DNA of 64,000 nucleotides from Dudresnaya verticillata (GCA_977862235.1 OZ374557.1:3162001-3226000); one strand, 5' to 3'. Positions 1 to 47,720 are shown, counted from the stretch's first letter. Numbers and translations: made by a program. The notes: generated from the letters alone by a model not told the origin.

Positions 1-1361
1 TCAGCCAGGAGAACTGCTCCAGTAACATGAAGGGAACCGGGTTCAAAACGCGTTTTCATATTCACTTTCACACCTTTCCAGTCAACAAGAATCGCGGTCC
101 CGATATCCAAATATTCTCCCTTCACCCTAACCCTTCCAAGACTGTTCTTCGGCCATGACACAGGACGGCAAAGGAGGCTGTCCTTGCTTGGATTTTCGTC
201 GTCTGCACTCCACGTCCCAGAAAAATAGGTGAGATCGTGTCCCTCCATTATGGAGCAGAACTGAAGTGATGTATTTCCGGAAGGAACAGGTCGGCCCAGG
301 ACGTGTGTTTCGAACAGGTCAACTTTTCCAGTCCCAAGCTTCCTTACTCGCAAATTGTCTTGGAAAATATCGCAAGTTGCAGTTGGCTTCTCAGGGCAGT
401 TCCGAGGACAAACTGAGCAGCCTTCTCTATCGTATCCAGAGAGCGCAATGTCCCTTAAAATCTTACCCACTGCGATATGTCTTGGATTCTTCTGCAGAAG
501 AATTGAGAGGAGAGCGTAGTGAACATCTCGTCCATTTCTGCTCACCTTGCTGATCTGTAACGTCACAGAGTGAGAACCGTTAACTTGAAATGGGCGACCA
601 TTCAAGCCCTCCCTCAGCGTGGACCGTGCGAAGGACACTTTTCCCCCACGAACACCGTTCGGGACAATGCTGTTATACTTAATTCCAGAAGTCCTTTGTC
701 CGTCATCTTTCATTTTCTTCTTTGCCGCTTCAAACACGGCAGATACAGCCTGGTTGAGGATTGTTTTCGGTATGAGATCGAAACTGTCGACGTCAGTACT
801 CCGCTGCCGAGAACGACAACCAGCTGCGCTAAGCATCAGAGAAAGGCATCTTGCTGCGTCCTCATCCCGAATGTGGAACGTTGAAGAATTTAGACTGGAC
901 AGCTTTTCGATCGGGTTGCACTCGGCCTATTTCGTTTCCCATGGTTGCGTCACCGACCCGGATTATACCCGGTTGATCGGTACTAGTTCCATCACGAATG
1001 GATGGAATAGCCCGATCTGCGATATTGCCTTGAACAGCGCTTCTTCTCACGCCAGGAAGAATATTTCGGGTCTCGGTAAGAGACGCACGCGTCCGAAGTT
1101 GGTTTTCGACCACGTTCGGGCCCCAAAGTACGACGATGTTTTGGCTGTCCCGGCTTTGGTTGTTTTCCTTACCGTATGACTTTGCACTGAGGAGCAGTGA
1201 TATTTTCCAGCTCGCGGATCAGTGTTAATGACGTCTTGAACGAACTGTGCGTTGTGGCGCATATTTTCCAAAGCAGACTTCACCAAACTGCGTTCTCTGC
1301 ATTGTACGGACCCGTATATCGTGTCCAGACAGCGCTCAAGACTGTTGTTAGTGCGAAGCAT
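1..1361 (-). pseudogene. Degenerate or partial ORF of unknown function running off the left edge
   Basis: One minus-strand frame is open from ~926 to the window edge (~308 codons; not in the ORF track because it has no stop). The same frame extends up to 1361 through three stops (1047, 963, 927). No recognisable domain. Confidence 0.45.
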
Positions 1362-1482
1362 AGTGAGGATGACAGTTATTCGTAGTTGCCGTCGGTAGGA
1401 GAAGGATGGACATGAAAGGGACAGAGATATTTGAGATCGGGTACTAATTGTTTCAAGTAGGAGAGGGGTGCATCCAATGACC

Positions 1483-1598
1483 AGAGGTACACTTTGACAT
1501 GTAAAAGTGTACCTCTCTACCCGGTGTACCCCGTCTCTGCCAATGAAAATCGTGAACGGGGTAGAGAGGTACGTTTTTCATGCTCAAAATGCACCTCT
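1483..1598. repeat. Pair of related short palindromes (possible MITE-like remnant)
   Basis: AGAGGTACACTTT-gacatgta-AAAGTGTACCTCT at 1483-1516, with a degenerate copy at ~1565-1598. Confidence 0.6.
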
Positions 1599-1902
1599 GC
1601 TGTTATTATAAATGTGCATTGCCGATGAGTAGTTTGGCTGTCCTGATTAACGAAGTACTCGTCCCCGTAACAGCTGTTTGTACTGAGACCGGCTTGTAGC
1701 TTGCATCTCCGTTCGAGTCGGAACGATAGAATGCACCACGGGACTCTTCAATACTACCGAAGGATGGTCCCTTTTAGTTGTAGGACGCACGCGTCGTACT
1801 AAGCTAGTTTCGAATATGAATAAGTGCTTGGTACAGTAACAAAGGTTGTGTTTACTTGTTCGATACTCTTTGCCGTTCATGAATGCCTTTAAGTACAAGG
1901 CA

Positions 1903-1961
1903 AAACTATTTTTTAGTTTACTAGCCTTACAAGGCAAGGCTAGTAAACTAAAAAATAGTTT
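1903..1961. repeat. Perfect 26-bp inverted repeat with 7-nt loop
   Basis: aaactattttttagtttactagcctt (1903-1928), loop acaaggc, then the exact reverse complement (1936-1961). Confidence 0.9.
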
Positions 1962-3505
1962 ACTGGGCAAAGGAGGGGTGCCACGAAGAAGATAACTCTA
2001 AACTATGCAATATGTCTATGTCTCTAAACATTCTCCTCGATCTTGAAGTCGGCTGTGCCTGTTTCGCGTGGGTAGCCTTCAACAGTGAATCGTACATGCG
2101 TCATCGGTTCTGAACGTCTCGTTTACAGTGGCCTTTTTGCTATTTTCAAAGCGCTGTACTGGAGAACGGCAACGGCAGTCAGTATGGCTCTCGTAATGCC
2201 GCGGTGGGCCCTCTCAGGCCTCTCGGTTCTACCGCCGCGTTACAATTACCGCAATTACTCGCCGTGGCGTAACGCGTAACGCTCCTGCGCTCACCGTCGC
2301 CGCAGACGTTCCACAGCCACCCACGTGTTCCGCCAACTCCACACACGCGCTCCTTCCACTCCTACACTAGCACGGTACACCGTAGACCCCATCTACCCCT
2401 AAAACGCCCGCCCAAATGTACCCCTACTATTTCCCACGTTCCATCGTCTCAACATATGAAACTACAGAGGCGGCAGAAGCCGGTGATTATCGCGGCAGCC
2501 CCAATTTATTGCCGCCTTAATTTTCAAACAGCGCACTGGGACCCCGACGCTGCCTCCGAGAAGGCAAGGCCCAATTCCACTAAATTTGTGTCAATCATTT
2601 AGTATGCGCCGTGTCTAGCACGTGGCTAGCACCACCGTCGCTGCAACCGTCGCGCTGACCCCCTCTGTCCGCCGGCCGCCCAACAGGCTGCTGCCAAGGG
2701 AGCGTTCCATCAGAGTTGGAACCGCTTGACAGTGCAAGGTACTACTGTGATAGAAGGGGGTCACGGTCACGCTTGTACAGTAAAATTGACATATGCACTG
2801 CCATCTACAGCCGCAGGGCGTGTGTGCTACAGCGGCACGACCGCGGCTGCTGCAGCGCTGCAGCCAGCGCATTGCAGTGCATTGCAGCGCGGCCGTAACG
2901 GCAGTATTCCGCGCAGCGCAAAAGCGCAGACGGGCCTCGTGAGCCGTTCGAATTTCACTCGCATTCCCTCATCACCCCTCAACGGCAAGATAACTCTACA
3001 GAGTCTGCTTTGCCCTTCTCGTTTCCTGTTATCAGCTACTCTCTGAACAACATATTTCTGCCTCACACACTATGCCACTTCCCCCGCATCTCTTTCAATT
3101 CCTACCCATTTCTCGAGTGCAATCTGGGACACTTCCACCAACCACCGCGTGCACAGTTCTCGGAAACCTGTGCACATTGCTCAAAACCTAAGCAACGTTC
3201 GCCAATCCATCAACCATAAGGCCCTCTCACTGCGGTTTCTTCTGGTGGGACGTTTCTGTCTTCAGCCCTTTCGTCCGTGCAGTCTTTTTGTCTGTAGCTC
3301 CCATCATCGGATTGAACGGGCTTGACCGGCTACAGCCTGGGACTTCCAACTTTAGCTGGAACCTGGGAATTTTTCAACCTTTGCTACCATACACGGAACT
3401 ACAACTACCGTAGGATTCATCCCTACCCGCTAGGACAGTTCTGTCTTACTCTTCTTTTTCGGTGACCAAAAGCTGCTTGCAGGCTTCCATCCCTTTAAGC
3501 TAGAG

Positions 3506-4810
3506 ATGTCTCGGAACTCTTCAATCATGCGCATGAGCAAGACAATGTCTTCCATCGGCAAGCCGCAAGATCCTTTGAAGAAGATTAAAATTTATGTAAG
3601 AGGTTCTTATCTACACTGGATGAAAGAACTTAACAAGACCGGCTTCCATGGGTTTCTGTGGTCCGACTTTGAGCACTTTATGAGAGCTTCTGGAGACACA
3701 GACGAGCCGCATGCCAATACCACCGGGGTTTTGTCCAAGGATTGGAACATAGAAGACCAAGAGGTTACTTTGCAGAAGGTATACAGTCCTTTGGACCATT
3801 CGCCTGGTGCTGGGTGGTTCACGATGGAGTCGTTTTTTGATAGCGCGTGTGACATTACTCTCGTCATGGCTACAGTTACGGAGGTTATGAAGGTTTGCCT
3901 TTGTTCTCAGTTGTTCTCGTCAACCACGCAGTTCTTGTTCGCTTCAAAGGGCAGCTTTGCGAACACGTACTATATTGATGAAGGAAACACGCCACTTTAT
4001 CGCTGCTTTCTGTATCTGGGTGGAGAGGTTGTGCCTCCGCAGCACGTGCTGGAACAGATAGGCTGGAATCGACAGTACGCAGCCATTACTCCAGCCAATC
4101 TGTCTCATGTTGTCCCGGTGACTCAGCGACAGCGACCGGTTCGGAAGGCTCTGCTTCCGTTGGCTTACTACTCAGAGGGAGAACGCACGAAGCGGATGCA
4201 TCCTGGGGACATTTTGGTCCTCAAAGGCGTGCCTTTTGCTGTAGATCTACCTATGGCAACGCGAGTCAAAGGTGCCCGAATGCTCACATGGGGGCTGTTC
4301 GACCGCATTGGTTTACAGTCGGCTGCCGTTGAGCGTTCAGGGAAAAGGTTTGTCGTCCTCCCCAAAGTCCCGGATACCATTCATCCTGTGAAAGATCTTT
4401 CGGTGGAGTACCCAGAAGCGAAGATCCTGTACAGGAAAAATATGAGGGTTCTGAAGTACAGGGACCTCGACAACCCATCTCTGGACTCTCTCGAAGATAG
4501 CCGTGTATTCCCATCGCTGTACACTCCAAAGGAAATAAGAGAGGTTCTTTGTGGAGATGATGATGTGTTTGAGGTTCACAGTGCTGCATTTTGGGATGAT
4601 GAAATGAACGATTCCGATGAGGACGGCCGTGCTTCTGAGACCCCGAAGCTCAACATATCCGAGGACGCCCCAATCGTGGTCCCCCAGACAACGACGAGGC
4701 CCCGCCTAGACGCAAAAGGGCAAACAAGGCTCCTCGTCGCTCTATTCTCGACGCCGGCAAAAAATAAGAAACCAACGGATTGTAGAAAGTGCCTTGGTAC
4801 GATCAGCTAG
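3506..4810 (+). CDS. Hypothetical protein, 434 aa (probable transposon accessory gene)
   Basis: Long ATG-initiated ORF with globular composition and an acidic C-terminal patch. Contains one copy of the element palindrome (4206-4221). Confidence 0.65.
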   Translation: MSRNSSIMRMSKTMSSIGKPQDPLKKIKIYVRGSYLHWMKELNKTGFHGFLWSDFEHFMRASGDTDEPHANTTGVLSKDWNIEDQEVTLQKVYSPLDHSPGAGWFTMESFFDSACDITLVMATVTEVMKVCLCSQLFSSTTQFLFASKGSFANTYYIDEGNTPLYRCFLYLGGEVVPPQHVLEQIGWNRQYAAITPANLSHVVPVTQRQRPVRKALLPLAYYSEGERTKRMHPGDILVLKGVPFAVDLPMATRVKGARMLTWGLFDRIGLQSAAVERSGKRFVVLPKVPDTIHPVKDLSVEYPEAKILYRKNMRVLKYRDLDNPSLDSLEDSRVFPSLYTPKEIREVLCGDDDVFEVHSAAFWDDEMNDSDEDGRASETPKLNISEDAPIVVPQTTTRPRLDAKGQTRLLVALFSTPAKNKKPTDCRKCLGTIS

Positions 4811-4924
4811 GTAGTAAATGTGGATACCTGCTATCGCTCTCTGGCAGCGCTGCGCAGTATTAATCTCTGTCTTTCAATCTTTGCAACTTTTTCTGCATGG
4901 ATGCAGCTGTATTCTAGACGTGCA

Positions 4925-5520
4925 CTTCAGCACTCCGGGACATGTCCAGGGCACTCCGGGACATGTCCAGGGCATGCCTGGATGATGCGAACGCGATGAG
5001 GACACAAATGTCCCACATCGAGATTGAGACATAAATGTCCCACATCGAGAATGTCCCAGAAAGTTGTAATCATGATACATATAGATTGTCGCCATATGGC
5101 GACAATCGATATGAATGTACTGGGGGAGACAGAAGTGTCATGGGCATGCCCGGGGGCGCGGATGCCAACTCGACTGGGACATAAATGTCCTAGGAACTTC
5201 AAAAAAACGATATGCACCGTCGCCATCATGGCGCATGATGCTGCTGCTGGTGGAAAGAAATGTGTCATGGGCAAGCCCGCGGGCATGCCCATGACAAATC
5301 GGATTTCCGCGGATTCCGCGGATAACGCAAACTCGATTGGGACATAAAAGTCCCAGAAAGTTGAAAACACTGTATACAGCGTTTGTCGACAATCGGCGAT
5401 CACCATGTGGGGGCAGAAAGAACTGTCTCAGGCGTGCATGGATGATTCAAACTCGATTGGGACATAAATGTCCTAGAACGTTTAAACCACGATATGCATC
5501 GATTGTCGCCATGGCGCTTG
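4925..5520. repeat. Degenerate repeat array carrying GGGACA-N4-TGTCCC sites
   Basis: 21-bp tandem (gcactccgggacatgtccagg x2), a 27-bp tandem, then alternating ~120/160-bp units each beginning aactcgaYtgggacataaa. Motif copies at 4999, 5026, 5176, 5339, 5459. Confidence 0.8.
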
Positions 5521-5580
5521 ACGCTGATGCTGGTCTTGTTCAGTTCAACGTTTATATACGATCAGATTACAGCTCTAGCA

Positions 5581-7637
5581 TTATCGTAGTTTCTCAGCGA
5601 AATCTCTCTGTAACTTTTCAAGCTGCTCTCTTGTCATGCCGTCAAGGGAAATACTGCTCGAGAGCACGGTATTCCTACGAGATCTAGACTTCAGAGCCTG
5701 GAGTTCCTGCTTGGCTTTCGCAAGCTCTTCTTTCATTTTCGACATCTCAGAATTGGCCTTCCCTTTCATCTCTTCCAACCTTTCCTGAACGTTTGCATTC
5801 ATTGCATCCTCAGGAATTGCAACGGTCTGCGCAGTAGGGGCAATCTGGTTGTTCTTTCGCAACTCTTCCAATTCGCGCTGAAGCCTCAAAATAGTTGCCT
5901 CGCGGAGATCCGTCGTCACTTGAAATGTGTCCGGTACATTTTTTTCTGAGGTGACTTCGGGACATTTATGTCCCCAACTTCCTTGCTCGACAAAATTGGT
6001 GGCCCAGTTGCGAGTAAATCCGCCTCACCTGGGACATTTCTGTCCTCGACGTTCTCACTACCGGTGGGAATGACCTTTTCGTCTCCATCCACTTCTATTC
6101 TTCTGCCATCTTCCGTCTTAATGTACGACTTCTTGAGCTCCTTGCGAGTCACTGCCGGAATCCATTCAAGAGCATATGGAATCGTGAGGTCGAAGTTTTC
6201 AATGTAGTTCGTCGGCTGATCTGTTTCATCCCCAGACTTCTTCTCTGGTACGACAGTGGTTGTCTCGAGACCACCAGCGGGAGCAACCTATTCCACAGCT
6301 CCACCTGAAGGTGCAGCGGTTACGCAATCATCATCTTGGCCTGTTATTTCCTGTTCCCTGTCTTTTCCTTCCAGCTCTGCATTGCTGTACTCCGAATCAG
6401 ATTCTGTCGTCGCTGCGTCTTTCCTCTTCCGGCCAGGCACACGGTTCGAACCTGCATTTCTTCGCACCGCTCTCTTCTTCCGTGATACAGCTGGGCCCTC
6501 CGCGTAAGAGATATCAGTGTTGCTTGCACGCAGGTTCGTAGTTCCTGGAGCGAACCCGTGCTTTTGCATGTAGGATGCATCGAAAACGTCCCCATCGGAC
6601 CCAGCCTTAACCGCATTGGAGAAAACGGGCTCCACCAAGGCACCATTAGACTCCATTCCAGTTTTCTTCTCCAACCCAATAGCGCACTGCTGGATAATGT
6701 ACTGGAGGTGAGATGTAGGTACCTGTCCTGCCATAATTAGCGCCGTGCTTGTAAAGGACGGCATTTTCTTACACTGCTCCCAATACATGAGAGTATCTAG
6801 AATGGAATTTCTGCCTCCAAGTTCCGGTAATGGATGGGACATTTCTGTCTCAATGAGGTAGTAATCCCCAGCCACCCTACGGTTGTTGTGGCGAGAACAC
6901 TTCTGGTCCAGCAAAAAGTGCTGCGAACCTCCGACGAAATCTGGCGACCCTTGCAGCCGCTTCTTTAATGAATCAGTACCCCCGTACTTCGGTAGGATCT
7001 TGGCTACCTTCCGCTTGATACTTGGGTCAGTCTCGATGAGCGTACGGACCAGGGCAACTTGCTGCAACCTTGTGTACTCTGTCGAGGACTCCACCTGTGT
7101 GTTCGCCACAATTAACAGTGTTTTGAGAACAATTAGCACGCGTTTCATGAACATATCATGAGTGACGGCAGCATATTCAGCGGGCGTTCCTTGCTTCTTG
7201 ACGGCGTGATAAAGAAGTCGAAACTCTTCTTCTGTGATCACCCGAGCATGTGTTAGGGGAAAAACAGTGTCCCTCACGCATGCAGTTCGATGCTTTCGGC
7301 CAGCCACACAAGATGGGACATAAATGTCCTGTACATCCAGTTCGAATATGGGCGCAGTGACGGTAAGGGGCTGCTGCCGCCTGAAGCCTTCATAATACAT
7401 TCCTTCTCCCATATGGAGTACCTCGATCATGTCTACAGCTCGAGAAGCTGCGTCGAAGCCGGGAATGTGCTCTATGAGTCTTGTGGCAATCGGCACTGGA
7501 TTGCGGAGATCTACTCGATACATTATCTTCCGAGCAGTTCCAATTAGGGAAAGGTTCATGGCAGCAAGATTGAAAAGGAACTCTTGGTCGGTGAAACTTC
7601 GCGGCGGGGCACGGCTTGGTCGCGGCTTGTTCACCAT
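5581..7637 (-). pseudogene. ~680-codon gene of unknown function with basic (NLS-like) patch and C-terminal coiled coil, disrupted
   Basis: ORF 6288-7844 (likely ATG at 7637, MVNKPRP) reads through an in-frame TAG at 6288 into ORF 5916-6152 (same frame). It then shifts frame at an A-run near 5940 into ORF 5581-5919 (LRLQRELEELRK...KMKEELAKAKQELQAL). Confidence 0.6.
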
Positions 7638-8441
7638 CTTGGCTTGAAAAGATGGGTAGACGTCGGCGTGAAGTCGAAGGCCGGTGTGTCGGCCAATGTT
7701 GAAGGAAGTGCGCCGCACTGTGTGTTGGTGTGTGCGCCGCGCTGTGTGATGGTGTGTACACACCACGTGTGCCGCGGGGCGCGCGCTGTGTGTTGGAGTT
7801 TGTGCCGCGCTGTGTTGGTGTTGTGTGTGCAGCGATGATAACACTGGAGGTGAGTGCGTTGTGCTGGAACGTCGCGCCGCGGAAATTCCTGTCGTTAACT
7901 AGACTTCCAATGACGTAGATTGTCGCCTGGGACATTTCGGTCCCACCGTAAGCTTCTCAATTTAGCGGCTATTTCCAGTCAAACGATTGGTGTATACATG
8001 CCCCTAAATCACTTTGGCGGGCCGCTTTACAGAAGGCGCAAGACTGATTCGTCGGGCCCGAGACAGCGATGAGCAATGCCCCTCGACGATCGTCGAGCCG
8101 CCCGCGGGCGGCTCACACGGCCGTTACGGTACACGCGTGTATCGTAATCGCGCGCGCGCGGAATTGTTCATCGCAACGCAAATTCTTCGATGCGTCGAGC
8201 TACAACTATTCCACGCATCATTACATCCAGACGTCTGGCGCACGCCAACTGTTGACCCTACCCCTCCAGAGCTAGCAGCAGAGCATCCGTCTCACCCAGA
8301 ACACTCTCGCCTGTTCCGAGCGCTGCACCCAACAAATCAACTATGCCGGACAACGCTGAGGAAGAGGCCTATGGTGACCCGTGGCTCTCCATCCTGCGGA
8401 CCGAGGCGTTTGCAGAATAACGCGGCCCTGCTGACATTGAG
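7638..8441. promoter_or_regulatory. Putative bidirectional promoter region
   Basis: Lies between divergent ATGs (7637 minus, 8442 plus). GC-rich, with GT-rich ~24-bp tandem repeats at ~7707-7830 and a palindrome copy at 7929. Confidence 0.35.
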
Positions 8442-10061
8442 ATGCCGTCCATCGAGAAAGAACTGCCCTGGGGACGCCAACCCGCCGAGGATGTCGAGCA
8501 GAACAAGGACGACCGCATCGTCGAGCCGCTGACCAGAAAAGACCGCAAGTTCCTTCGTACACATACGGAGCCGTTTACAAGTCATGGGCAGGTTTTGGAT
8601 CATAAGAGCCTCGATGGCCTTCGCGGGAAGGAAGCGTATCTTGACGACCAAGTCATGGACTTGTTCGGGATTCTCCTCAGCCACCGCAGTAAGGAACGCT
8701 CCGACTCCATAAGAATTGGATTGAAGACCGTCGTTTACTCCGTTTTCTTCATGGACGCTCTGCTGCAAAAGGGTAGGACTGTATTCAACTACAGTGCCGT
8801 ACAGAACTGGCTCGGCAAGTCGGAGTGGCCTCGTGAGGACATTAATGTCCTCATGTGCCCAATCAACTTGGACTGGCGTGGCGTTCGAGCCCCGCAGCAT
8901 TGGGCATTGTTGGCCGTGAACTTTCAAGAGGGCATGTTCCTCGTCTACGACAGCCTTAATATGGGGACATCTAATCTCGTCTTGGCACAACTCTTCCGAT
9001 TTTTTAAGATGTACCTCCAAGAAGCGGTGGGAGATTTGCACAACGGAATGGGGGACTGGCCGGTAGTTGAAGCTCACGGTCATGGATACCCAGTTCAAAT
9101 GGATTCCGAATCTTGCGGTTTGTATGTTTTGTGGGTAATGGAACACATGGAGAGGGGTTTTATCCCCTGTTTCGCGCATCAGGACATTCGAGTTTTACGG
9201 AAGAGAATCGAGCTATTTGTGCGAGGCAGACAAATTATCCTGCTCGATTTTGTGGGGTCCGCCTGGGCTACGGAGAAGTTGCCCGCTACGAAGAAGCTGG
9301 CCGCCGCTGCGGCTACCAACGACTGTGCAGCTTCCGCCTCCAAATCGAGAAAGGTAGATGAACAAGATCTGGAAGAAATTGTCGCCGTTGTCGCAACTGC
9401 AGTGATTCCTGCTGGGACAGAAATGTCCCCCCGTCAACAAGATTCGGAGAGAGTGGGGGCTGTTGCATCAGTTTTGGTTGAAACGCAGTCTAGACTGCGT
9501 AAATCAGCTGCTTTTGTGCTCCCGGATTCTACACCGACTGTAACACACCCGCCCGGAAAGGAGGTATCAAGTAATGGTGCTTCTGTTGTGGAAAGCAGGG
9601 CTGGTAAGGAGAACCGTATCGAGTACAGGGATGCTGTCGGTGGACAGTCAGCCGTCAAGAGGGGTGAAGCTGGTGGGACCTTTGCTACCGAGCAGAACAG
9701 AAACGATTCCCGGAAAGGGACTGAGTCAAAGAAGCGTGCTGACTTGGGTAGCCGCAGGGAGAGTGAGAACGGTACAGATTTATCATCGCATTCCACCGTG
9801 GAGAGGTGCATGGATGACCTCGATAATATCATTTCTAGTGTACCACTGGGTGACGGAGATAATACTACGGTTTATGCCAAAGACGCGTCTTCCTGCGGGA
9901 TACCCGGATTGCAAGCGCCAGGTTTATCTCTCGAGACAGTAATGTCCCAAGAGTGCAAGGAGAAAGCACATACGCCACCGGCAGCTGCTGAGGTTCTAGA
10001 GGCAGGAAAACGTGTGGGGGGGAAGGTGGTGAGGATGGTACGGATATCAAGAAGAACGTGA
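8442..10061 (+). CDS. Ulp1-like SUMO protease (peptidase C48) with low-complexity C-terminal extension
   Basis: Motifs YLDDQVMD, PINL...QHWALL, VYDSL and PVQMDSESCGLYVL give an intact His-Asp-Cys triad plus the oxyanion Gln. It probably continued past a frameshift at the G-run ~10016-10022 into ORF 10058-10333. Confidence 0.88.
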   Translation: MPSIEKELPWGRQPAEDVEQNKDDRIVEPLTRKDRKFLRTHTEPFTSHGQVLDHKSLDGLRGKEAYLDDQVMDLFGILLSHRSKERSDSIRIGLKTVVYSVFFMDALLQKGRTVFNYSAVQNWLGKSEWPREDINVLMCPINLDWRGVRAPQHWALLAVNFQEGMFLVYDSLNMGTSNLVLAQLFRFFKMYLQEAVGDLHNGMGDWPVVEAHGHGYPVQMDSESCGLYVLWVMEHMERGFIPCFAHQDIRVLRKRIELFVRGRQIILLDFVGSAWATEKLPATKKLAAAAATNDCAASASKSRKVDEQDLEEIVAVVATAVIPAGTEMSPRQQDSERVGAVASVLVETQSRLRKSAAFVLPDSTPTVTHPPGKEVSSNGASVVESRAGKENRIEYRDAVGGQSAVKRGEAGGTFATEQNRNDSRKGTESKKRADLGSRRESENGTDLSSHSTVERCMDDLDNIISSVPLGDGDNTTVYAKDASSCGIPGLQAPGLSLETVMSQECKEKAHTPPAAAEVLEAGKRVGGKVVRMVRISRRT

Positions 10062-10911
10062 AGAATCCAGGTGGAGGGACACCGCTTCACCTCGTGCTGG
10101 ATGAATTTGGTGAACAGTTGGATGAGGTGTGGAAGGAGTACATGGCCCTGGTAGAGCCCGCGCGCGTGGCCGCGGCCACGAATTCTGACTGCGGAACGGC
10201 TCAGACCTCTCAAGTTAATCAGAGCGGTTCGGAGTCGGTACGCGCGGGACCCGGTGGAACTAACGGTGCTAACGCGGAGAAAGGAAATGAGGGGGGAGGG
10301 GAAGGTCGCTCGCCACGTCTAGTACAGAAATAGGAGGCCGAACATGAACCGGAGAGTGCACAGCATGCTGAACCAGCCGTTCAGGCGGATCAGCCTCGCG
10401 AGGCGCGCCGCAACCCGAGGCGAGAGAGGAAGAGGCCACGACGATTTGTGAATTGAGAGTGGACCCATGGGTCCCCGCACGTACTTCGTACGAATTCTGG
10501 GGATTAAATGCTTCCTCGTTCGGGATTTGTGGGAGGGCTACTGGTCTTGGGCAGAGCTCCGACATAGCATAATGGAGCGAAGACATTTCTGTCCAACCTT
10601 TTAGAGAATAAATCTTCGGGCTCACATGACAGCTAGCTGTGTGTCACAACAGAAAGTGTAATGGCTCTTTTCCCGAAGTCGACTTGGCGATCGCGACTGC
10701 CGCGAAAATTGTACTTGTATACTGAAGTACCTGGTTTAAAGAGTGGCGCATTCTTCGGGTCAACACTCTTTTATAAATTGGGACTTGTTCATTTCTAAAT
10801 ACCAGGTTGAAGTCGACTTCCATGATCATGGATTCATGTTAGCCTAGGCTGCAGCTGAAGAGACACGTGCACGTGCACTCAGGCCTGCGTCTATGACCGG
10901 ATGCATCCACT

Positions 10912-10965
10912 CGCGAGCTCGACAGACAGCTCACCACATGTGGTGAGCTGTCTGTCGAGCTCGCG
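10912..10965. repeat. Perfect 54-bp palindrome with no spacer
   Basis: cgcgagctcgacagacagctcaccaca|tgtggtgagctgtctgtcgagctcgcg. Confidence 0.95.
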
Positions 10966-11267
10966 CGTTCATGGTGATCAACACAATTGAGGGCATTTAA
11001 GGGCGCACTTGGGACATTTATGTCCCGGAACAGTTCTGACGGAAAGATATATCCTTTTTTCACCTCATATGACGTGCCTCAATATGCAATCTCTGTTGCA
11101 TATTGTGCAAGCAATTGATTGAGTGTTACACTTAAATGATCTTCGGAAACGTAATGTTACTCTATTCATCGTACGATAGACGTCTATACAAAGTAACGTT
11201 GTACGCATTGCAATTGTGAGTTAATACTATAAATCTATAAATCTCTACTAGAATTGACAATTGACTA

Positions 11268-11361
11268 GTCATATGCTTGTGCAGTAGGCGATGAAATATG
11301 GCTACAGCCGCGTCATATGCTTGTACAGTACAGGCAGCGATGAAATAAGGCTACAGCCGCG
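11268..11361. repeat. Imperfect 2x tandem repeat (~44-49 bp)
   Basis: gtcatatgcttgtRcagta...gcgatgaaataWggctacagccgc occurs twice. Confidence 0.8.
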
Positions 11362-11964
11362 GATACTACACTATGTTTATAGATGATGCATCATATGTGT
11401 GCACATCTCCATAGAGATGTGTATACATAGATGGTGCATATGATATCATGAGCATATAGTGATGATTATTTCATCTTTCTACACATTAATATAGGACCTG
11501 TATATGCAGGTGATATCATGTGACAGGTACTGTCTGCAGACATGTAGATATGCATATCATGCCCGTCATGAATCACGTAAACATGTGTAAGTGATCCATG
11601 ACGCTCGAGCGTACACATATGTACCGAATATTATGTTCAACGGAATATGCAAACTTTGCATCAAAACTTGAAGGTACACAGCAGACATGGCTGTGTGAGT
11701 CTCGACCCACCGCGGCGAAATCATATCGCTGTAGGTATATTGTGTACATCTACAAACACAGTTTCTTGAAATCATGTATTCATGATTTCACCTCACCACT
11801 TGGTGAGGATTATGCCGAATGGGAGACATTTGTGTCTCACAAACACATGAATCGAGAGTGACCCCTTCGCTAGAGACATATACCACATGGTCTATTGACC
11901 TTTTAAGAATAATTCATGAGTAAAGCGCATTCCCATACATACACATGAGACCACATATACACCC

Positions 11965-12100
11965 AGGTGACTCTTATCATATGTGGAACACATTTCTGTC
12001 CCATACTCAGAGTCAATTGACCCCTTTCATCTGTGGAAGACATTTATGTCCCATATTCCATTACCCCTTTCATATATTGAAGACCTTTCGGTCCCATCCG
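11965..12100. repeat. Three ~43-50-bp degenerate units, each with a palindrome copy
   Basis: Motif copies at 11987, 12037 and 12080, each preceded by ...tcat(a/c)t(g/a)t(g/t)gaa. Confidence 0.7.
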
Positions 12101-12160
12101 TGAGAACATTCTGTTTGGATAACTGCGGGATGCAGACACATATGTGCACACAAATTTATT

Positions 12161-13960
12161 TCATTGCGAGTTGGAAGGACAACATAAACAACTCATTTCT
12201 AAACACTCGAAGTATCCCCATTCAAGGTCATGTTCGGATATGATTTTAGCCCTGCTTGAAAAGGAATATGGAGAGGTTGGAGTTGAACAAGATGAGAAAT
12301 GGAAGTCGCTTGACTTCGTTTACTGCAGTCGACCATCCGACATGGCTTATATCAGCTTTTCGGATGAGTTGCTGCGTGAACACAAACAAAACAAAACATT
12401 AAAGAAAAGCCCAAAATCCCTATCATCAAATGGGCGGGAAAAAGTAAAGCAATTAAATCTACCAAATCATACTCTCAGCACACTCACATCCGCCACCAAA
12501 ATGGGCGGGAACTTGCACACCAGTGTTGCTAACTGCTGACATCAGCAATCCCTCTTGCGACCGCATTTCCTGCCATCCATATGTACTCCAACTTTGGGCG
12601 GGAACGTGAAAGTATCGAGTGTCCCCGCATGGCTGCTGTCGGACAACACTGCACACCACGTGGCCGCACTTACGAGCTGAAGTCCGTCCATGAATATCCA
12701 ACTTGGATCATTGACCACGTAATCACCCAGATTTGCCTACGTGGCAGCTGTAAACCAACGTGTCGGCCGCACGACAGCTACGTCCCAACTGTAAACCAAC
12801 GTGTCGGCCGCACGACAACTGCATCTGCTGATATCACAAGCCAGGCTCCACGTAGCGCAAGTCCCTGCACACCAACTCAGACGCCATCAGCACATTGCAT
12901 GGCACGTTCATATGTACTTGTGGCATACAGTGCGCGTCATACCAATACCATTCCATGCCATACCACATGCATCCATGTGGTCCAATCAGATCGTTCCACT
13001 TGGCCGTTCCTGTTATAACCGCCAATTCCAGCACAACACTTGTAAGCCATATAGACCATGGAGGCGGTTTGGAACAACCAATCAGAAGCCCGTTTCACGT
13101 TGCTTTTGCAAAAGGCCTAAATGCGCCGTGATTTTGGAAGCCCGGAAAAAGGGCTGTCGTCTCCGGAAGGTTTGGTGACAGCGTGCCAGGGTGCCATCTG
13201 GGGTGCCTGACCCGTGACGTGAGGTGCCAGCGACCATGTCCTCAACACTGCTTTGAAACCTGATGGAAGCTCGAGTTTTTGCCTTCACATTTCCTATCAT
13301 AGTGTGGTAGGCAAGAAGTGCTGTGTATAGTTCATGGCCGCAGTTTCGTAATGTTCTAGCAATCAATTGAATTGAACTGTTTCGCTGCTCATGAGACACT
13401 GTGTTTGAAGAATCCAGTTCTGTGTACACCTTCGGATTGTAGGACGGCGAGCAAGCTGTATGGTTGCCGACATGAAACTTGTCACTCACTATTGTGGTTC
13501 CCTCTGGTGCCCACCATAAACAGTTGATAGCGCTACTGTATAGACCACAAGAGAAGTCGTAGACAAGGAACCTTGGAAACTTTGGAAATCTGGATAGCAC
13601 CATATCCAAAACTACTTTTGGTCCCTCGTTGCGGTAGAGTACCTTCATACCAAACATGATTGGATTTCGACATCCGCATGAAATGGTCATCGCACCTGGC
13701 GTGAAATGGTTCTGCTTTTGTTTGAAGTCTTTTCAACATGGCCCTAGCCCTTCAATTGAAGATGATATCTCATCTTTGTTGAAAGGAAGAGGCCGTACTT
13801 GTTCCCTCCCTGGGAAGTATTGACCTGTCCGGAAAGCCTCCTTCAAGTCACTGTTCCATTCGGTTGTCATCTCCGAATGATGTTGGCGTAATAAATTCTT
13901 CAGAACAGTTCTGTCCTGACTTTTCCATTTCGGTAGCACCGAGGTCGTTACAAATCATTC
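12161..13960 (-). pseudogene. KDZ (Kyakuja-Dileera-Zisupton)-type transposase, catalytic C-terminal part
   Basis: Motifs TGQYFPG..QVRPLP, C*KDF...FTPGAMTISCGC, EGPK, VYDFSC, SDKFHVGNHTAC, SNTVSHEQRN. In-frame TGA at 13733-13735. Interrupted by a Copia solo LTR (12257-13247); removing it restores ...FQSRAKIISEHDLEWGYFECLEMSCLCCPSNSQ* ending at 12161. Confidence 0.8.
12257..13247 (-). mobile_element. Copia solo LTR, TSD CTGCT
   Basis: 991 bp, TGTTGAGG...CCTTTTCA on the minus strand. CTGCT at 12252-12256 and 13248-13252. Confidence 0.95.
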
Positions 13961-14366
13961 TAGTACGAACCGTGGTCCGCGTTGACGCGCATTCGTGCTC
14001 ACGTAGTATTACTCAGCCAGTCGTCTGGCACAACCTCCGAGGGTTTCCGGCAAACGACTAGCGCCCGGACCTCGGAGTCTTCGGTAAACGCCTGCTTCTT
14101 CGAGTTCGGTGTCTTCGTCTTCGTGACCGCGGATACGGTCGAGCCTCGTTTTCGATAGCCCCGCGCACCCGTAGTTATCCCCGGTGATCGATCGCTCGAG
14201 TTCTCCCTTCCGCACACGAATACGTTGACACCATGGTCCTTCGTGTTGGTCGCTCCGCTCTACCACGCGACCACCCCTTTTCCTTTCTCCGTTAGGCTAC
14301 GAGGCCATTCGTTAGGCTCCGAGGCCATTCCTTACAGTGCGAGACTTCCCCGCGTCACCGTGGACA
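13961..14366. mobile_element. LTR-like remnant of a third family inserted in the KDZ gene
   Basis: GC-rich insert ending ...GTGGACA. Segment ~14235-14355 is clearly homologous to 45281-45411, and its start resembles 15096-15115. No clean TSD. Confidence 0.55.
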
Positions 14367-15115
14367 TTTTCATACCACAATGGATGAAATTGAAGCACTA
14401 CGCAAGCTGTTTCGCTGCGTTTCGAGCAATCGTTGGCAGACGATGTCCTTCACAAACGATAAAGGCTTCTATTCAGAACGGCAGTTGACGAAATGAAGCT
14501 TGAATGCTCTGTGAGAGACATTGCACCTAACTGAAGCGTTTTCGTTGTTCTGTTCATGAACCGGATCCTACAGCATTTGAAGGAGTGGAGCAATGAACTC
14601 ATCCGGATTCGCGAGCTCGCGGATGTGGTACAGCTTTCAGACATACACCCCTCTGTTTCTGTGCTGTTGCTCTCGCACACCACTGGTTTTAGCTTTGCAA
14701 AGACTATAGCTGTTTTGCGACAGTCGAAAAGCTCAGCACCCTCTCGGGAAAGGATCCGTTTCCTTGCAAACAACATTGTGGCATTTTCGGCAACTGGACG
14801 CGGCTGTGAAGGTCAAATGGAGTGGAATTCCTAATGCAATTTGACATGTCAACTGGGTGAGTTTGAACAAAGCTCACTAAGAAGGTTTTCGTTGTTCCAC
14901 TTTATCTTTTGGCTACTTTGGAAGAAGACCTCTACGTCAGAAGGGCCTTAGACAATCAGGTAAAGATGCTGGGTGCGCGTAAAGCAGAAAAGGAGGGCTA
15001 TTTTGTGGGTGCTATTGCCGATGCAATATTCAGGTTTGGGCTTGCGCTTTGCTCCAGGAGCCGCGAGGAATCGCAAGTCGAATCGGTGAAGAAACTGTAG
15101 TATAAACGTCGGGTC

Positions 15116-16016
15116 TGTGGTGCAAACGTCTGAAGACGGAACACCACCTAGCAGCTCGGGGCTCGGTGGGTAGCGGCGCCCGAGGCGGTGAGTAGCCTCG
15201 CCTTGGGTGGCTTGTGGTAGAGCAGTTGACACGCCTTGGGCGGACTGTAGACGCCCGAGGCGGAAAGGAAGGACAAAAGGGAACAAAAAGGAAACACGTC
15301 AAGGACGGTGATGAATGTGGAGGCACAGGAGGTAGACGCTCAGGCCGTAGGCAGCGGCAGGGTACGCGCGTGCGGAACGGGGAAGTCTGGACCAAGGCCG
15401 GCTTGCCCAGGCGTTTACTGTTACGTCTGGGACGGCTTACCTAAGTATAGTACGGCGGTGCGGCGGCGGTGCGTGTGCGTAGCGCGGGAACTCGGGACAC
15501 GTGTCGTCCCGAGGCGCGTCTGACAGATCACCCATCGTACGTAGCCGCGCGCCTGACAGGTTGCCGCGCAACCCCCTGCGTGGGCGCTTACACGCACATG
15601 TAGACGCGTGCGCCTTACAGCTGTGCGCGCGCGTGTACTGTAGAGCGTGCGCCCTTGTTCTAATCCGATACTTGTCCGATCCCGATCCCCATCTGGATCC
15701 GGGCCAGCAACGCGAACCCTCGCAGCCTTAAAGGCGCGTAACTTACAGCGTAGGCGATCCAGATAGCCAATCTGGATACCGGATCCGGATCCCATCTGGA
15801 TCCGTGTTACAGTGCCCCGGGGCGCCATATCGGCCCATCACCGTACAGTGCCCGCATGGCGCGCGGCGCGCAACGTGCGCGCGTGCCCCAGTGAGCCGTC
15901 GATGACGTGTTCGCGCGCCAACGGCGGTGGTGAGCGCCGGTGGCGGTTTCTCCGTCGGTCGACGTACTTGTTGCTCCGCTTTCAGCAAAAAAGGGGCTCA
16001 ACCCCCTTGCACCACA
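15116..16016 (-). mobile_element. 3' LTR of Gypsy-1
   Basis: 10-bp terminal inverted repeats TGTGGTGCAA...TTGCACCACA, adjacent PPT, and homology to the Gypsy-2 LTR at 44447-45280. Confidence 0.75.
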
Positions 16017-16027
16017 CCACCCCCTCC
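16017..16027 (-). other. Polypurine tract of Gypsy-1
   Basis: GGAGGGGGTGG on the minus strand immediately before the LTR TG. Confidence 0.65.
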
Positions 16028-16455
16028 AAAACGCGAACACGTCCGACCCTCAACCTGCTGCGTTTGCCTTCGCCTTTGACCGTGCCTGCGCTTCGTCTTG
16101 GTGTTTCTGTGCGCGCGTCTTGCGACTTCGGCTGTGCCGTGCGAAACCTCGCCCGTGTTGCGCGTCGCGTGCCCTTGCACTACGCCGACATCATCGCCTG
16201 TGGCGCCTCTCGACCCCCGTCGTTGACGTCGTTCAGATTCCCTCGCCTGTTGGCGTTCTTCTTTGTGTATCGCCTAGGGCGTAGTAACTAAATCGTCGTT
16301 GACGAGAGGTTGTAAGGTTTTCGCCAGTAGCGTGGGACAGTAATCGTCTTCGACGCACGCTTCGAGAACTTTCGCCAGTGGCGCCGGATACAAGTCGTCT
16401 TTGAGGTTTGTGTATTCATCGCCAGCGGCGCGAACCTATTCTCTTCTTCTACGTT

Positions 16456-18764
16456 ATGCCTACATTCAATGGCATGCAGGTGGCGGCGCCCTCGGCCGCG
16501 CCGGTGTACGCGTCACCTGTCGACTTCGCCGGTAAGAATCCTCGCGATCACGCGCATTTCTTCGCGCGGGCCCCCTGGTTTGACCGGAAGGCTTTGCATG
16601 AGGACGAGTTGGTCTCTCATTACACTACTAGCGGTTTCTTCCCAGGGGGCCTGCCCGTTGGCGTCGTCTGGACGTTAGAGTGGAAGTTGCGCTGCGTGTT
16701 CCGGTGGGGTGGCTTTGGGTGCGAGCGGGACAATCGCGTGCGGGCGTCCACGCGCAGTTCGTCTCAGACGTATATCGACGCTTTACGCGTTACCCCGGGT
16801 CGACGTTAACGCCGCCTCTCTTCAATTTCGATTCTGGGCAATACCGTACAGCCGGCGAGGCCGAATATGGTGCTCGTCTTGGGACGTTTCCATTGAAGCA
16901 CGTGAGCTTGTCAATTGAGCCTCGCATTTTGCAAGAGGCTTACCTCTTAGGTGTACGCTTAAAAGCGGGTTTTCGTTACTTACATCGTACGGGTACGTTC
17001 TTCTCGGAGCGTTGTATCCGTTGGGAATGTGAAACGCGTCGCCAAAAGGGCGTGTTTGTGCCGTACCAGGACATGCAGGTCGACCGCATTGAGCGTAGTA
17101 AGTTGCCTTATTGTTTTGTGAAGGTGCCGCCTGGATGGCGTGAGTTCGAGATATGCGAAGGTTTTGCAGCAGAGCTCCCCCCGTGTGTCACGTATCTTGG
17201 TTCCGAGCTGATGACCGACCCGTATTCCAGGTATTGGATCGTTTTCTACACCGAGTGGGTCGCCAACGTGGCGTATGCTTGGCTATGGGAGGTGTATAAC
17301 ACCTTCCGTATGTATCATCTACCACCGCGTGTGGTCGCCCATCTCGGTAGCCTCGACTTTTTCGAAATATTTGGTGGTTCCCGGAACTCCGAGGAGTTCT
17401 GGGACCTGCGCGCTATTGCGGATGAGATCGATTGGAACAACCCGGTCGCCGTGCCGCTAGCCAACAACCGCCGTAAGGTGAATCGTCCGCGTTACGCGAT
17501 GAGTCGTACTCATTCCGCCTGTGGCGATTGGATTTGGTTCAACCCTTGGACAAAGCGTCGTACGACGAAGAACATTGCAGAACGCCATCGCAATGCCGGT
17601 CGCTTCACGCCGGGTAATCACCCGCGCGGTTTACGTAAGACCTGCGACTTTGTCGGTGACTTTCCTCCTCACTTGAGCGCCTTAATAGCGGAAAAGGATG
17701 CTCTGCACGCCAACGGCGGACCGGATAACTCGTCTGGGACGGCTATTGCTACGCCTATGGCGGTGGAGTCTTCCGCTGAAGCGGCTGTGCCGTCTACGAC
17801 GTTGCCCACGGGGCCTCTTGCGGTGAGTGCGATGCCAACCGGCGTGGCCACTGTTGCGCCCTTGACCCTGCGGCGCCCGTTCCGGACAACGATGGTGACT
17901 TCATTATGGCGGTGCCGGTGTCTGAGCCACCCTCGTCCGCAATAGCAGCAGGCGGAGCATCGAGCGTCATAGACGGTTCAGGGAAAGCTCCCAGTGTGCC
18001 GGTATGGACCGAAGAACAGCGCCGTACGGTCCTCGCCTTGGTGCAGGCTGCCGGAGTCGCTACTAACGGTTTGAGCGGCTCACCCACAGAGTGGGTGAGC
18101 CAATCTTTGTCGGCTGCGGTTCCGCCTCAGAGTGGGTCCGCGCCGAAATCGACTATTTTCGTAGGCTTCGCGTCGAATGACGGTGTGGCAGCAAAGCCGT
18201 TGTAGCCTAAGGCGAATGGTTCAGCGTCCAAAGACGTGAGTATGACGTATGACTGTAACGCCTGCGGTGAGCGAAGCAAATACTGCTTTAGCGTCGTCGA
18301 CGGCTCAGAAGGGGCCAGGTGCTCCTGCGTCAGTGACGAGTGTAGAGTTAACGACGCCGAAGGCGAGTGAAGGTGCGACGCCGATCGAGGCGGTTTCTGA
18401 ACTTACGCCAAAGGCGGTTGATGAGTCGTTGACTGTGCCTAAAGCGGATGGGACTGGGCCTGCGCCTACGGCGAATGATAGCTTGAGCTCTGCGCCTATG
18501 GCGGGTGTTGTTGCTTCATCGCCTGTGGCGGATATTGTCGCGAAGACGCCAAAGGCGGTTGATAAGTCGCCCCTTTCGCCTGCGGCGCCTGTTGCGGCCA
18601 CTCCGGCATATGCAGTGGCAAGGCCTTTGCGGTCCGCCCCGGCTCCTGCCGTGATTGTACCGTCGACGACGGAGGACAACCTCTACGAAGAGCTGTTGCG
18701 TGAGTCCGCCGAAGGCGTTGCTCAGGATTTGCCAGCCGATTCGTCTGCGACGAGAGAGTCTTGA
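16456..18764 (+). pseudogene. Antisense extra ORF inside Gypsy-1 (unknown function), broken into 4 pieces
   Basis: Consecutive or overlapping ORFs 16408-16809, 16680-17945, 17906-18205 and 18249-18764. Aromatic-rich N-terminal ~420 aa, then an Ala/Pro/Ser/Thr-rich tail with TPKA repeats. Lies between pol and the 3' LTR on the opposite strand. Confidence 0.6.
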
Positions 18765-20114
18765 TGTCGTTTCAGAAACGGATAGTGGACGCGAGGGTGC
18801 GTATTGTGTTGCCCTTCGGCTCCCTTGCGGGACCGATGAGCGAGGTATTCCCCTTCGTCTTTGACAATTAATGTAGCTGTAGTGGTCGATCGCTAGGGCG
18901 AGGGGTTGTCCCCATTTGTTTTTAGTCCAGTACACTTCGGCCATTGTCAGCGTCTTTTCGTGTCGCATTTCGCGTTGGCCTTAGGGTGTAACCTGTGATC
19001 TCCTTTCGACTTTGCGTCGTGTTCTTTATTGCCCGCTACAGTAGCGTTGGTGTTTGATGCCTTTAGCCTTGGCCGCGTTGCGCTCCGGCTGTGTTTGGCT
19101 GGTAGTGTCCGCTGTAGTAGCGTTGTTCTTCGTGTTGCACGTGCGGCGGTTGGCGTATTTCCGCTGACTTCGCGCTTTTGTAGTGCGTGTGTCGCTCTGC
19201 GCCTTGGGTGTGGTTGCGTGTAGGTGGGGCTGGTGGAGAGCCCCTGTGCCTCCCACGTCGTCGCTACTATGGCGTATTGTTCTTTTGTTTTGTCGGCGTC
19301 TTGGACGAGGGTCGCGACGGCGGTGAGGTAGGTTTTGATGCCTTGGCGTTGTTGCGCCTTTCATCTCCGACGTTCCTCTTTAGGGGTAGGGAAGGGAATG
19401 GTCGCCCTAGCGTGACTGGGATCGCGGCGGCCGCAGGCAGCGGGGGAGGCATTGCGCGATTTGTTGGCGCGTCGTGCACGGAACCCACGGCAACTGCGTC
19501 TTCAACCACCTTCCCCCCCTTCGGTGGTGGGTTTCTCGGCACGCCCCCTCTTGGCGAGTTACGTCGGAGACGTTCAACGTGTGCTTTCGTGTGAGGCCGT
19601 GGCCGGCAGGGTGACGGTCCCAGGTACTTGGCCGCAGTGCGAGTGCACATCGCGACGTCGGAGACGGTTGTTGCGCACTGTCACTTGCGACTGTCGTCGC
19701 TGGTGCTCCTAGCACCTGCTCAGCCACTTGTCATGATTGCGTTCGTCACACGTTGACTGCCCGGTGATGCGCGCTGCCGTGTTTGCAAATTGAGAATTGA
19801 CCAAATACTTGCTCCGATTACCCGAGGGGCGCGGGCGGCGGATCTCGATTTGCGATCTGGATCCACTGTCAACCGCGCACCTATCCAGAGGTCCTGTATG
19901 GTGGCCGCTGCGAGGTGTTTGTGCGCGTGGCTGTCTATGACGCAATGAGTTGCGTCCGTGTTCGTCCATGACGCGCACACGTGTTCGGCGCTATCGCTGT
20001 GGCGACCGCGTCCACAGGCCATGGGTTGAGCTTCCGCGCCTTTGGCGACCGTAAGTCGAGCACGTGGTCTCGATCGTCCGTCCATTGGCTTCCAGTGGTA
20101 TATCCGGATTAGGA

Positions 20115-46438: not shown

Positions 46439-47000
46439 GTGTTGCTGCGGCTCTCCGTTTTATTGTGGGTAAACGACGGGGAGATGGAACTGCTGTGCAG
46501 CACCACAATATTTCGGGAACAATTTTCAGTTTCTATTCGATTTTGAAAAGGAATATGGAGAGGTTGAAGTTGAACAAGATGAGAAATGGAAGTCGCTTGA
46601 CTTCGTTTACTGCAGTCGACCATCCGACAAGGCTTATATCAGCTTTTCGGATGAGTTGCTGCGTGAACACAAACAAAACAAATCATTAAAGAAACGCCCA
46701 AAATCCCTATCATCAAATGGGCGGGAAAAGTAAAGCAATTAAATCTACCAAATCATACTCTCAGCACACTCACATCCGCCACCAAAATGGGCGGGAACTT
46801 GCACACCAGTGTTGCTAACTGCTGACATCAGCAATCCATCTTGCGACCGCATTTCCTGCCATCCATATGTACTCCAACTTTGGGCGGGAACTCGAAAGTA
46901 TCGAGTGTCCCCGCATGGCTGCTGTCGGACAACACTGCATACCACGTGGCCGCACTTACGAGCTGAAGTCCGTCCATGAATATCCAACTTGGATCATTGA

Positions 47001-47720
47001 CCACCTTGCCAGAGGCGGGGTCGACAACGTAGTCGCTTTGTCCCATGAACGACACAACGGGGCGCCGGGCAGGTTGGCGGCCATGGCGAGGGTCCAGCGG
47101 GTGCGGACGGTGTTGCCTGGGGCGTCGATTGCGAGCGCTTGCAGGGTGAGGGAGGCGGACGAGAAGACCGGGGACTCGTTCAGAAAGGCGATGTTCGAAG
47201 CGAAGCGAGACACGCGCACGAACGTGTTCAGCGGGTCCTCAAAGGTGACCGAGGGAGCATAGAGCGAATAGTCCTTCTCGCCCGGCGCGAACAGCGTCGG
47301 AAGCTCATGACGCAGCCGGTTCGCGACGACCTGCAACGCACGCGGCGCGGACGATTTCGGCGGCGAGCGAGTGGCGAACGGGCATATCGGGGCTTGCGGG
47401 CGCGGGCGTACGCGGTGTGGGAGTGGTGCTGGCTGCGGGAGGAAGGCTGGCATCGCGGGAGCGACAAAGGGCATGGAGGGTGGGAGCTTGACATCCCGGG
47501 ACGGGGCCAGCGGGTGAGTGCAAAGAAAAGACTGTAAAAGATCAATACGCAGTCCACGCGCCGTGATTTCAGTCAAGAGAGGCGTTTCGGCGCGCCACGA
47601 GGGGCCACGCCGGCCATACAGCGCGCCAGGAGAACGAGTTAGGACACCCGGACAGTTTGCGTGGGGCGTGACGCGGTACAACGAAGAGCACGAGATCTGG
47701 GTGCCATCGATTAGAAAATC
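47001..47720 (-). repeat. Inverted duplicate of host sequence 61460-62179
   Basis: 720-bp reverse complement; two substitutions noticed (NTFVRV vs NKFVGV). Joined to the LTR by CCAC microhomology at 47001-47004. Confidence 0.95.

Follow-up and report, generated by a model that had tools for sequence, protein, structure and literature searches.

A 64-kb window from the red alga Dudresnaya verticillata (GCA_977862235.1, OZ374557.1:3162001-3226000; 'window' here means this whole stretch of 64,000 nucleotides) contains part of a transposon-like element in which a 16-bp near-palindromic word occurs 23 times, between the genes as well as inside them. The word is a real feature under selection at the DNA level, and its copies tile the element. 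Open reading frame 2 (ORF2) of the same element is predicted to encode a protein resembling ParB, Noc and KorB of bacteria. The best overall explanation, which we put at a probability of about one half, is that the copies are target sites of this ParB-like protein, which would coat the element.

A dispersed 16-bp word

Counting mismatches start by start, we found the word at all 23 starts (23/23) listed in an earlier note on this DNA. The form GGGACA-N4-TGTCCC is exact in three of the 23 copies; 17 copies have at most two mismatches and six have three or four. The whole window has 22 matches with at most two mismatches, against a mean of 3.24 and a maximum of 8 over 100 shuffles. Eighteen of these 22 fall in 4206-12052 and the other four outside it, each with two mismatches; one match at this threshold, starting at 7258, is absent from the earlier list and scores below 6 bits with the matrix described below. 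Over the remaining 50 kb of the window, no copy had fewer than two mismatches, in agreement with the earlier observation that the retroelement and host sequence lacks a full copy.

Using a position weight matrix (PWM) trained on the 14 intergenic copies only, with the in-gene copies left out, we recovered all nine in-gene copies (9/9) at 15.5-26.3 bits. Beyond 3000-14000, a score of 15.5 bits was reached at only three places, all with one identical 16-mer in Copia-region sequence. The four central bases, previously described as a free spacer, turned out to be constrained. With the copies oriented by T content, they read T, T, T and C or A in 21, 23, 21 and 20 of 23 copies, respectively, and word positions 4, 5, 12, 13 and 14 are invariant over all 23. 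The word is therefore polar, a near-palindrome of the form RRGACATTTMTGTCYY with the centre TTT(C/A).

From left to right, the part of the element in view comprises a broken left gene (minus strand), ORF1 (plus), ORF2 (minus), a Ulp1/SENP protease gene (ORF3, plus) and the 3' part of a transposase gene (minus). Single intergenic copies, all on the plus strand, lie at 3247-3262 (three mismatches, 20.0 bits), 3432-3447 (upstream of ORF1, 19.9 bits), 7929-7944 (between the divergent ORF2 and ORF3 starts), 10580-10595 and 11011-11026 (the exact consensus). Five minus-strand copies (starts 4999, 5026, 5176, 5339 and 5459) are clustered at 4999-5474, separating the 3' end of ORF1 from that of ORF2; this cluster also holds weaker copies at 5126, 5251 and 5414 and is made of degenerate tandem units with flank identity of at most 78%. 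Four plus-strand copies (11823, 11987, 12037 and 12080) are clustered at 11823-12095, downstream of the transposase stop, partly in tandem units of 43-50 bp. A 70-bp palindrome without a loop (10904-10973; 35-bp arms, 91% complementary) stands just before copy 11011.

Copies written into coding sequence

The nine in-gene copies are spread over four genes. ORF1 carries one at 4206-4221 (plus strand, peptide GDILVL). ORF2 carries four, at 5959-5974 (plus, GDINVP), 6031-6046 (plus, EDRNVP), 6836-6851 (plus, ETEMSH) and 7315-7330 (minus, QDIYVP); the third is collinear with homologues, and the fourth with the closest homologues, whose residues there differ. Three are found in ORF3, at 8836-8851 within the Ulp1 catalytic domain (plus, EDINVL) and at 9414-9429 (minus, GTEMSP) and 9933-9948 (minus, ETVMSQ) in the tail. 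The transposase copy, at 13902-13917 (plus, QDRTVL), is the weakest of the nine (15.5 bits). The number of copies and their peptide traces are as the earlier note had reported, with some corrections. Copies 5959 and 6031 lie beyond the in-frame stop of ORF2, in its read-through part; the strands and frames do differ as claimed, but one of the three codon phases is never used; and the four genes named all contain the word, but in a fifth, broken gene at 1 to about 1700 no copy scores higher than 11 bits with the PWM.

When synonymous codons were permuted with peptides and codon usage held fixed, in-gene sites averaged 1.87, with a maximum of 6 over 3000 trials, against nine observed; with codon order shuffled, the mean was 0.03. 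Because the nine sites exceed both means, codon choice and residue choice both favour the word. Per-site chances under synonymous permutation run from 0.005 (copy 4206) to 0.48. One of four control frames, from Copia, holds a chance 15.5-bit site (per-site chance 0.002), so copy 13902 alone is not proof. Sequences flanking the in-gene copies are unrelated, with 27% identity among themselves (36 pairs) and 25% to those of intergenic copies (126 pairs), and flank identity among intergenic copies reaches 78%. The ORF2-core sites, 6836 and 7315, show no indel relative to the closest homologues. Because of these unrelated in-gene flanks, the absence of indels and the shared intergenic flanks, the in-gene sites appear to have arisen by point change where the peptide allowed it, and the intergenic clusters by tandem duplication. 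The excess over the synonymous null, together with the unrelated flanks, upholds the earlier view that the constraint acts on the DNA and not on the protein.

Spacing of the sites

For the analysis of spacing, we subtracted 996 bp (a solo long terminal repeat (LTR) and its target duplication) and treated gaps below 200 bp as clusters. Nine of the 22 gaps belong to clusters and the remaining 13 measure 431-907 bp. The largest gap, 907 bp, has P = 0.004 against 23 uniform points, and the farthest base from any site centre is 453 bp away. The 13 long gaps are much more even than an exponential distribution would give (coefficient of variation of the excess length 0.34; P = 3.5e-5, an exact value that is soft because the gap cut-off was picked after the gaps had been seen). 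The direction is the same in every version, including those with four weak sites added (P = 8.5e-5) and with the six weakest dropped (P = 0.014).

A predicted ParB-like protein

The reading frame of ORF2 (5581-7637, minus strand) is interrupted by a stop at 6288-6290 and changes near 5945; the stop coincides with the end of an in-frame GT-AG stretch of 36 nt and could be removed by an intron. The protein is predicted to consist of a ParB-type N-terminal domain (about residues 45-188), a helical domain to about residue 350, a linker and a C-terminal coiled coil. Twelve homologues were found among 1.84 billion representatives, with cluster members that include three named Gracilaria domingensis proteins, the only homologues with a name and a sign of a red-algal host. 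The motif GNHR, preceded by RP and EP-like motifs, is present in all nine homologues that cover the site (9 of 14 aligned). The predicted fold places it where ParB has its arginine patch, and its sequence is unlike GERRxRA.

A structural model built from a 14-sequence alignment (predicted local distance difference test (pLDDT) score 72.5) retrieved Noc, ParB or KorB chains in all of its first 13 Foldseek rows. A search independent of Foldseek returned 7 of 48161 chains at Z>=5, all of the ParB/sulfiredoxin fold (best Z 7.6, root-mean-square deviation (rmsd) 5.2, 227 residues aligned), and a second structural comparison gave Z 8.0-8.6 against Noc, ParB and KorB. The N-terminal domain aligned with an rmsd of 3.2-3.5 over about 98 residues (for Noc, 3.2 over 99 residues, Z 8.1). 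Matches among viral structures are mostly ParB-named where they are named, and in the Atlas ORF2 reaches the PF02195 (ParB_N) cluster at 0.92. Beyond the ParB domain the model is all-helical and ends in a coiled coil, as in proteins P0002, P0005 and P0016, with the last helix aligning with that of the homologues at the same position. A ParB/sulfiredoxin fold at the N terminus of ORF2 is therefore a prediction with good support, and we infer a helix-turn-helix DNA-binding domain after it. Bacterial ParB has an arginine patch, a helix-turn-helix domain and a C-terminal dimerisation zipper (PMC7333895). The earlier note had postulated an element-encoded dimeric binder without naming it; a plausible candidate is indeed encoded, the predicted ParB-like ORF2.

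A mirror-changed word in related loci

A scan with a transposase alignment (A3) gave five related loci (L001-L005), on contigs that do not show the ends of the element. Transposase scans found none in metagenome contigs (with a single window piece as query), viral contigs or prokaryote genomes. A Ulp1-like gene lies near the transposase in three of the five loci. Two of them, L003 and L002, share an overlap of 276 bp (99.6% identical) and contain a variant of the word, GGCATWWATGCC, in which A-to-G and T-to-C changes occupy mirror positions. It has three matches in L002 and two in L003, with 0.06 expected in each, and none in the window; one match lies inside the transposase frame. The variant was first found by its nearness to the window word and then corrected over 16 one-pair variants, of which it is the best (shuffle best mean 1.17; P = 0.001). 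L001 has three PWM matches against 0.14 expected. The exact core GACA-N4-TGTC occurs in none of the five loci (0/5), and de novo dyad and 16-mer searches recovered the window word and, in the loci, no word clearly above shuffles other than A/T-rich ones.

A tandem array in L002 (6444-6606, 8592-9184) was considered as a counterpart of the word and rejected as a different local repeat without dispersed copies. Arrays of a unit of about 72 bp, whose 22-bp core has complementary ends, flank a decayed coiled-coil gene in that locus (L002:6444-6630 and 8592-9184). Between its transposase and Ulp1 genes lies an intact-looking PIF1 helicase gene (L002:2611-4134, minus strand; Pfam E 4e-24). Three copies of another short palindrome stand near the contig start at L003:117-204, possibly as a subterminal repeat.

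Proposed mechanism and alternatives

We propose that ORF2 dimers would load at each copy of the word, its likely binding site, and would coat the intervening DNA, so that the element would be marked as self over its full length, including its genes. That ORF2 binds the word is probable. Whether the protein spreads over only a few hundred bases in chromatin is evenly balanced in our judgement; such a short reach would account for every base lying within about 450 bp of a site. A more tentative step is that the coat may protect against host silencing, probably through recruitment of the Ulp1 deSUMOylase and ORF1. Taken as one chain, binding, coating, marking and the recruitment of Ulp1 and ORF1 against silencing would together fall slightly short of even odds. 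A complete ParB-parS-like system at work in a red-algal nucleus, with a nucleotide-gated sliding clamp, private 16-bp loading sites placed in genes by selection, spacing set by the reach of the clamp in chromatin, deSUMOylase delivery over the full element and co-change of protein and site from family to family, seems doubtful.

Several results weigh against this proposal. ORF2 has no ParB match in Pfam, PHROGs or NCBIfam; its Foldseek E-values are weak (best 4.5e-3), its Z of about 8 is near the stated background of the aligner, and its two-domain alignments to Noc and ParB, at an rmsd of about 5-10, indicate a loose fit of the helical domain. In the window copy, GNHR is replaced by RKHR and RP by RA, in addition to the stop and the frame change. 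The left gene is free of the word, and CpG ratios (0.88-0.92 in ORF1-3, 0.87-0.90 in Copia) show no contrast that would indicate protection from methylation. The evenness of spacing is weaker at other merge cut-offs (P = 9.5e-4 at 300 bp and 0.024 at 100 bp) and has P = 0.07 without the LTR discount. No ParB domain was detectable in any of the five related loci (about 15 kb in L003 and L002 together), where L002 may have lost it and a downstream coiled-coil remnant reaches only E 0.9. The variant sites of L003 and L002 are irregularly placed, 1.6-5.6 kb apart, and the variant test found no counterpart in L001, L004 or L005 (0/3).

KorB exerts its effect through a dozen scattered palindromic operators, and ORF2 might likewise bind the word as a regulator or DNA organiser, for distant promoter tuning or for compaction in transposition, with no role against silencing. 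The structural searches place KorB and Noc among the closest matches of ORF2, sites stand before ORF1 and between the divergent ORF2 and ORF3 starts, and the CpG ratios carry no methylation footprint. Against this, the densest clusters are at the 3' ends of convergent genes rather than at promoters, end pairing would call for sites at the ends, yet the interior is evenly tiled, and the recurrence of a Ulp1 gene in three of five related loci fits a chromatin role; we consider a KorB-like function rather unlikely.

That the transposase or some other protein of the element (ORF1 or the left gene) binds the word, with the ParB-like gene as a passenger, is improbable. This would suit L003 and L002, which have the variant word, the transposase, a left-gene homologue and Ulp1 but no ParB domain that we could find, as well as the altered ParB motif of the window ORF2. 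However, L004 and L005 retain transposase and Ulp1 remnants without the word (in short loci of 3.4 and 2.0 kb), a dyad of 16 bp is well matched to a dimer of the ParB type, and the possible loss of the domain from L002, on contigs without element ends, could explain its absence. The same pairing also occurs independently in Plavaka elements, which have a different transposase (bioRxiv 10.1101/2025.02.11.637652).

A host DNA-binding protein whose site the element exploits is a very unlikely source of the pattern, given that the remaining 50 kb of the window has no copy with fewer than two mismatches and that a related element uses a mirror-changed word, as one would predict if protein and site were private to each element. 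It is hardly credible that the copies are neutral relics, left by an old internal repeat or a tiny inserted unit: the intergenic copies do sit in degenerate tandem units, but the in-gene copies have unshared flanks, no indel in ORF2, an excess over the synonymous null and an even spread. Coating by the ParB-like ORF2 remains the reading that we prefer.

Other genes of the element and its surroundings

ORF1 (3506-4810, plus strand; 434 aa) is an intact frame without a homologue among 3645 candidates and without a weighty match in Pfam, PHROGs, NCBIfam or PDB. Atlas rows at 0.85-0.91, below the recognition threshold, give a weak lead to a 2-oxoglutarate (2OG)-Fe/DUF1826-like fold; by eye, the metal-binding His residues expected of a 2OG fold are missing, and a single-sequence model is unusable (pLDDT 29). 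Kinship between ORF1 and the left gene was ruled out by comparison, the two being unrelated. ORF3 (8442-10061, plus strand; 539 aa) encodes a Ulp1/SENP-family cysteine protease (Pfam Peptidase_C48 E 1.6e-11; SENP1 E 1.1e-6 with alignment) in which the His, Asp and Cys motifs are present, followed by a low-complexity tail.

The left gene (3-1700, minus strand), an accessory gene of no known family, is interrupted by in-frame stops and runs off the left edge of the window. In L003 a homologue (L003:506-2081, minus strand) is arranged head-to-head with the transposase (tblastn E 1.7e-28; BLASTP 31% over 195 aa) and has a frame change; the window copy is broken by stops. Because homologues were found beside the transposase in related loci, the left gene and the Ulp1 gene are regular cargo of these transposases. 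The left gene is of this element class and may belong to the same element or to a neighbouring relative. Between the left gene and ORF1 lie imperfect 44-bp and perfect 26-bp inverted repeats (1482-1599 and 1903-1961), which could be an element end or a small insertion.

The transposase 3' part (12161-13930, minus strand) has a stop at 13733-13735 and is split by a solo Copia-type LTR (12257-13247; 991 bp, 5-bp target duplication), a later insertion that has no motif copies and is 93-98% identical to nine other full-length LTR copies in the window. The piece shares 53% identity with residues 1055-1286 of P0014 (1316 aa) and 50% with residues 1284-1313; the first ~1050 codons were not found in the window (P0014 search, E<=1). 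Given the stop, the LTR insertion and the lack of the first thousand codons from the window, this copy is dead. Relatives of the transposase have YDFxC, DxFHxxNH and HEQ motifs, Cys/His clusters and a length of 1100-1300 aa, features that resemble those of KDZ/Zisupton transposases. The KDZ label of the earlier note is thus in keeping with motif resemblance, but membership could not be confirmed: the Pfam KDZ model has no match in the window piece or in P0001, P0014, P0017 or P0018, and these four transposases match no other Pfam family either. Pfam can overlook KDZ domains, as has been pointed out (PMC5751038). KDZ/Zisupton transposons have terminal inverted repeats and a target duplication of 7-8 bp (PMC12730594). 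The ends of the present element were not found, 1-3400 has no partner elsewhere in the window and only part of the element is in view.

Most of the remaining sequence in the window belongs to Copia and other retroelements. At least ten copies of one Copia LTR, 93-98% identical, nested and in both orientations, lie in 12257-62200, a pattern that points to a recent burst into the region. Frames with a DUF2358 domain (46959-47750, minus strand; 61430-62290, plus strand) abut Copia LTR copies, repeated in inverted orientation, and are possibly a captured host gene. A GC-rich and CpG-rich element (14000-21726) begins where the transposase breaks off; it contains an orphan frame of 437 aa (16632-17945) and a chromodomain frame (20118-21197), and has a relative of about 70% identity at about 36965-38552.

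Comparison with known systems

The earlier note knew of no such description for KDZ elements, and the literature does not support the view that nothing similar has been described. PAG3, a protein with ParB and 2OG-oxygenase domains, occurs in red-algal Plavaka, Zisupton and Mutator-like elements, and has been proposed to bind inverted-repeat arrays of its own transposon, with the VANDAL parallel drawn (Petroll et al., bioRxiv 10.1101/2025.02.11.637652). Compared by description only, ORF2 and PAG3 are both accessory genes of red-algal DNA transposons with an N-terminal ParB-like domain, and both have tandem inverted repeats beside the gene, here the five-copy cluster directly downstream of ORF2. 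PAG3 differs in its fused putative 2OG oxygenase, whereas ORF2 has a coiled coil at its C terminus, and a 2OG-like domain, if there is one, would belong to the separate ORF1 (the weak lead given above). The main text on PAG3 gives only adjacent arrays, with no dispersed or in-gene sites, spacing rule or Ulp1 gene.

Sola1-1_Ec32 of Ectocarpus carries a ParB-like/methyltransferase accessory gene that was proposed to bind and modify its own element (PMC12477816). It resembles the present case in having a ParB-like domain in a giant algal DNA transposon, and differs in the fused DNA methyltransferase, in the transposase superfamily and in that the available account of it reports no binding site (PMC12477816).

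With the bacterial ParB-parS, Noc-NBS and KorB-OB systems, the element shares the predicted N-terminal fold, helical middle and C-terminal coiled coil (7nfu, 6t1f and 8qa8 are among the structures matched), and short dyad sites in many copies, whose specificity can change by mirror substitutions (PMC7333895). It differs in being a eukaryotic nuclear transposon with sites that tile a 10-kb element and no ParA gene found: the scanned long frames of the window, which does not extend to the element ends, have no ParA-like Pfam match. The ORF2 family also has GNHR instead of GERRxRA, at about 10% identity.

VANC motifs in VANDAL elements are 8-9 bp long, non-palindromic, mainly non-coding and multiplied by tandem duplication (PMC5735166). 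An element-encoded protein, here a candidate binder, and many copies of a family-specific motif are common to both, but VANC has DUF1985/DUF287 and not ParB (PMC5735166), whereas in the present element the sites are regularly spaced and nine of the 23 form part of codons. ORF1-3 and the transposase family have no Pfam match to DUF1985, DUF287 or the MULE transposase.

The element supplies an exact 16-bp candidate site, 23 natural variants, a mirror-changed relative as a specificity control and intact homologous proteins. If binding and sliding are true, a bacterial-type DNA clamp would act in eukaryotic chromatin, as a second route, unrelated to VANC, to the effect that VANC has in plants, and as a case of a binding-site spacing rule imposed on protein-coding sequence. 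In the literature, on which the supplements of Petroll et al. may also bear, we found neither dispersed in-gene ParB-type sites in a eukaryotic transposon nor even spacing of such sites through coding sequence, and no case in which a stand-alone ParB gene accompanies Ulp1 or in which a sister family has its site changed at mirror positions. Both the association of ParB-like accessory genes with inverted repeats and the idea of self-binding are already in print; new here are the regular tiling of the whole element, genes included, the exact candidate site and the Ulp1 partner.

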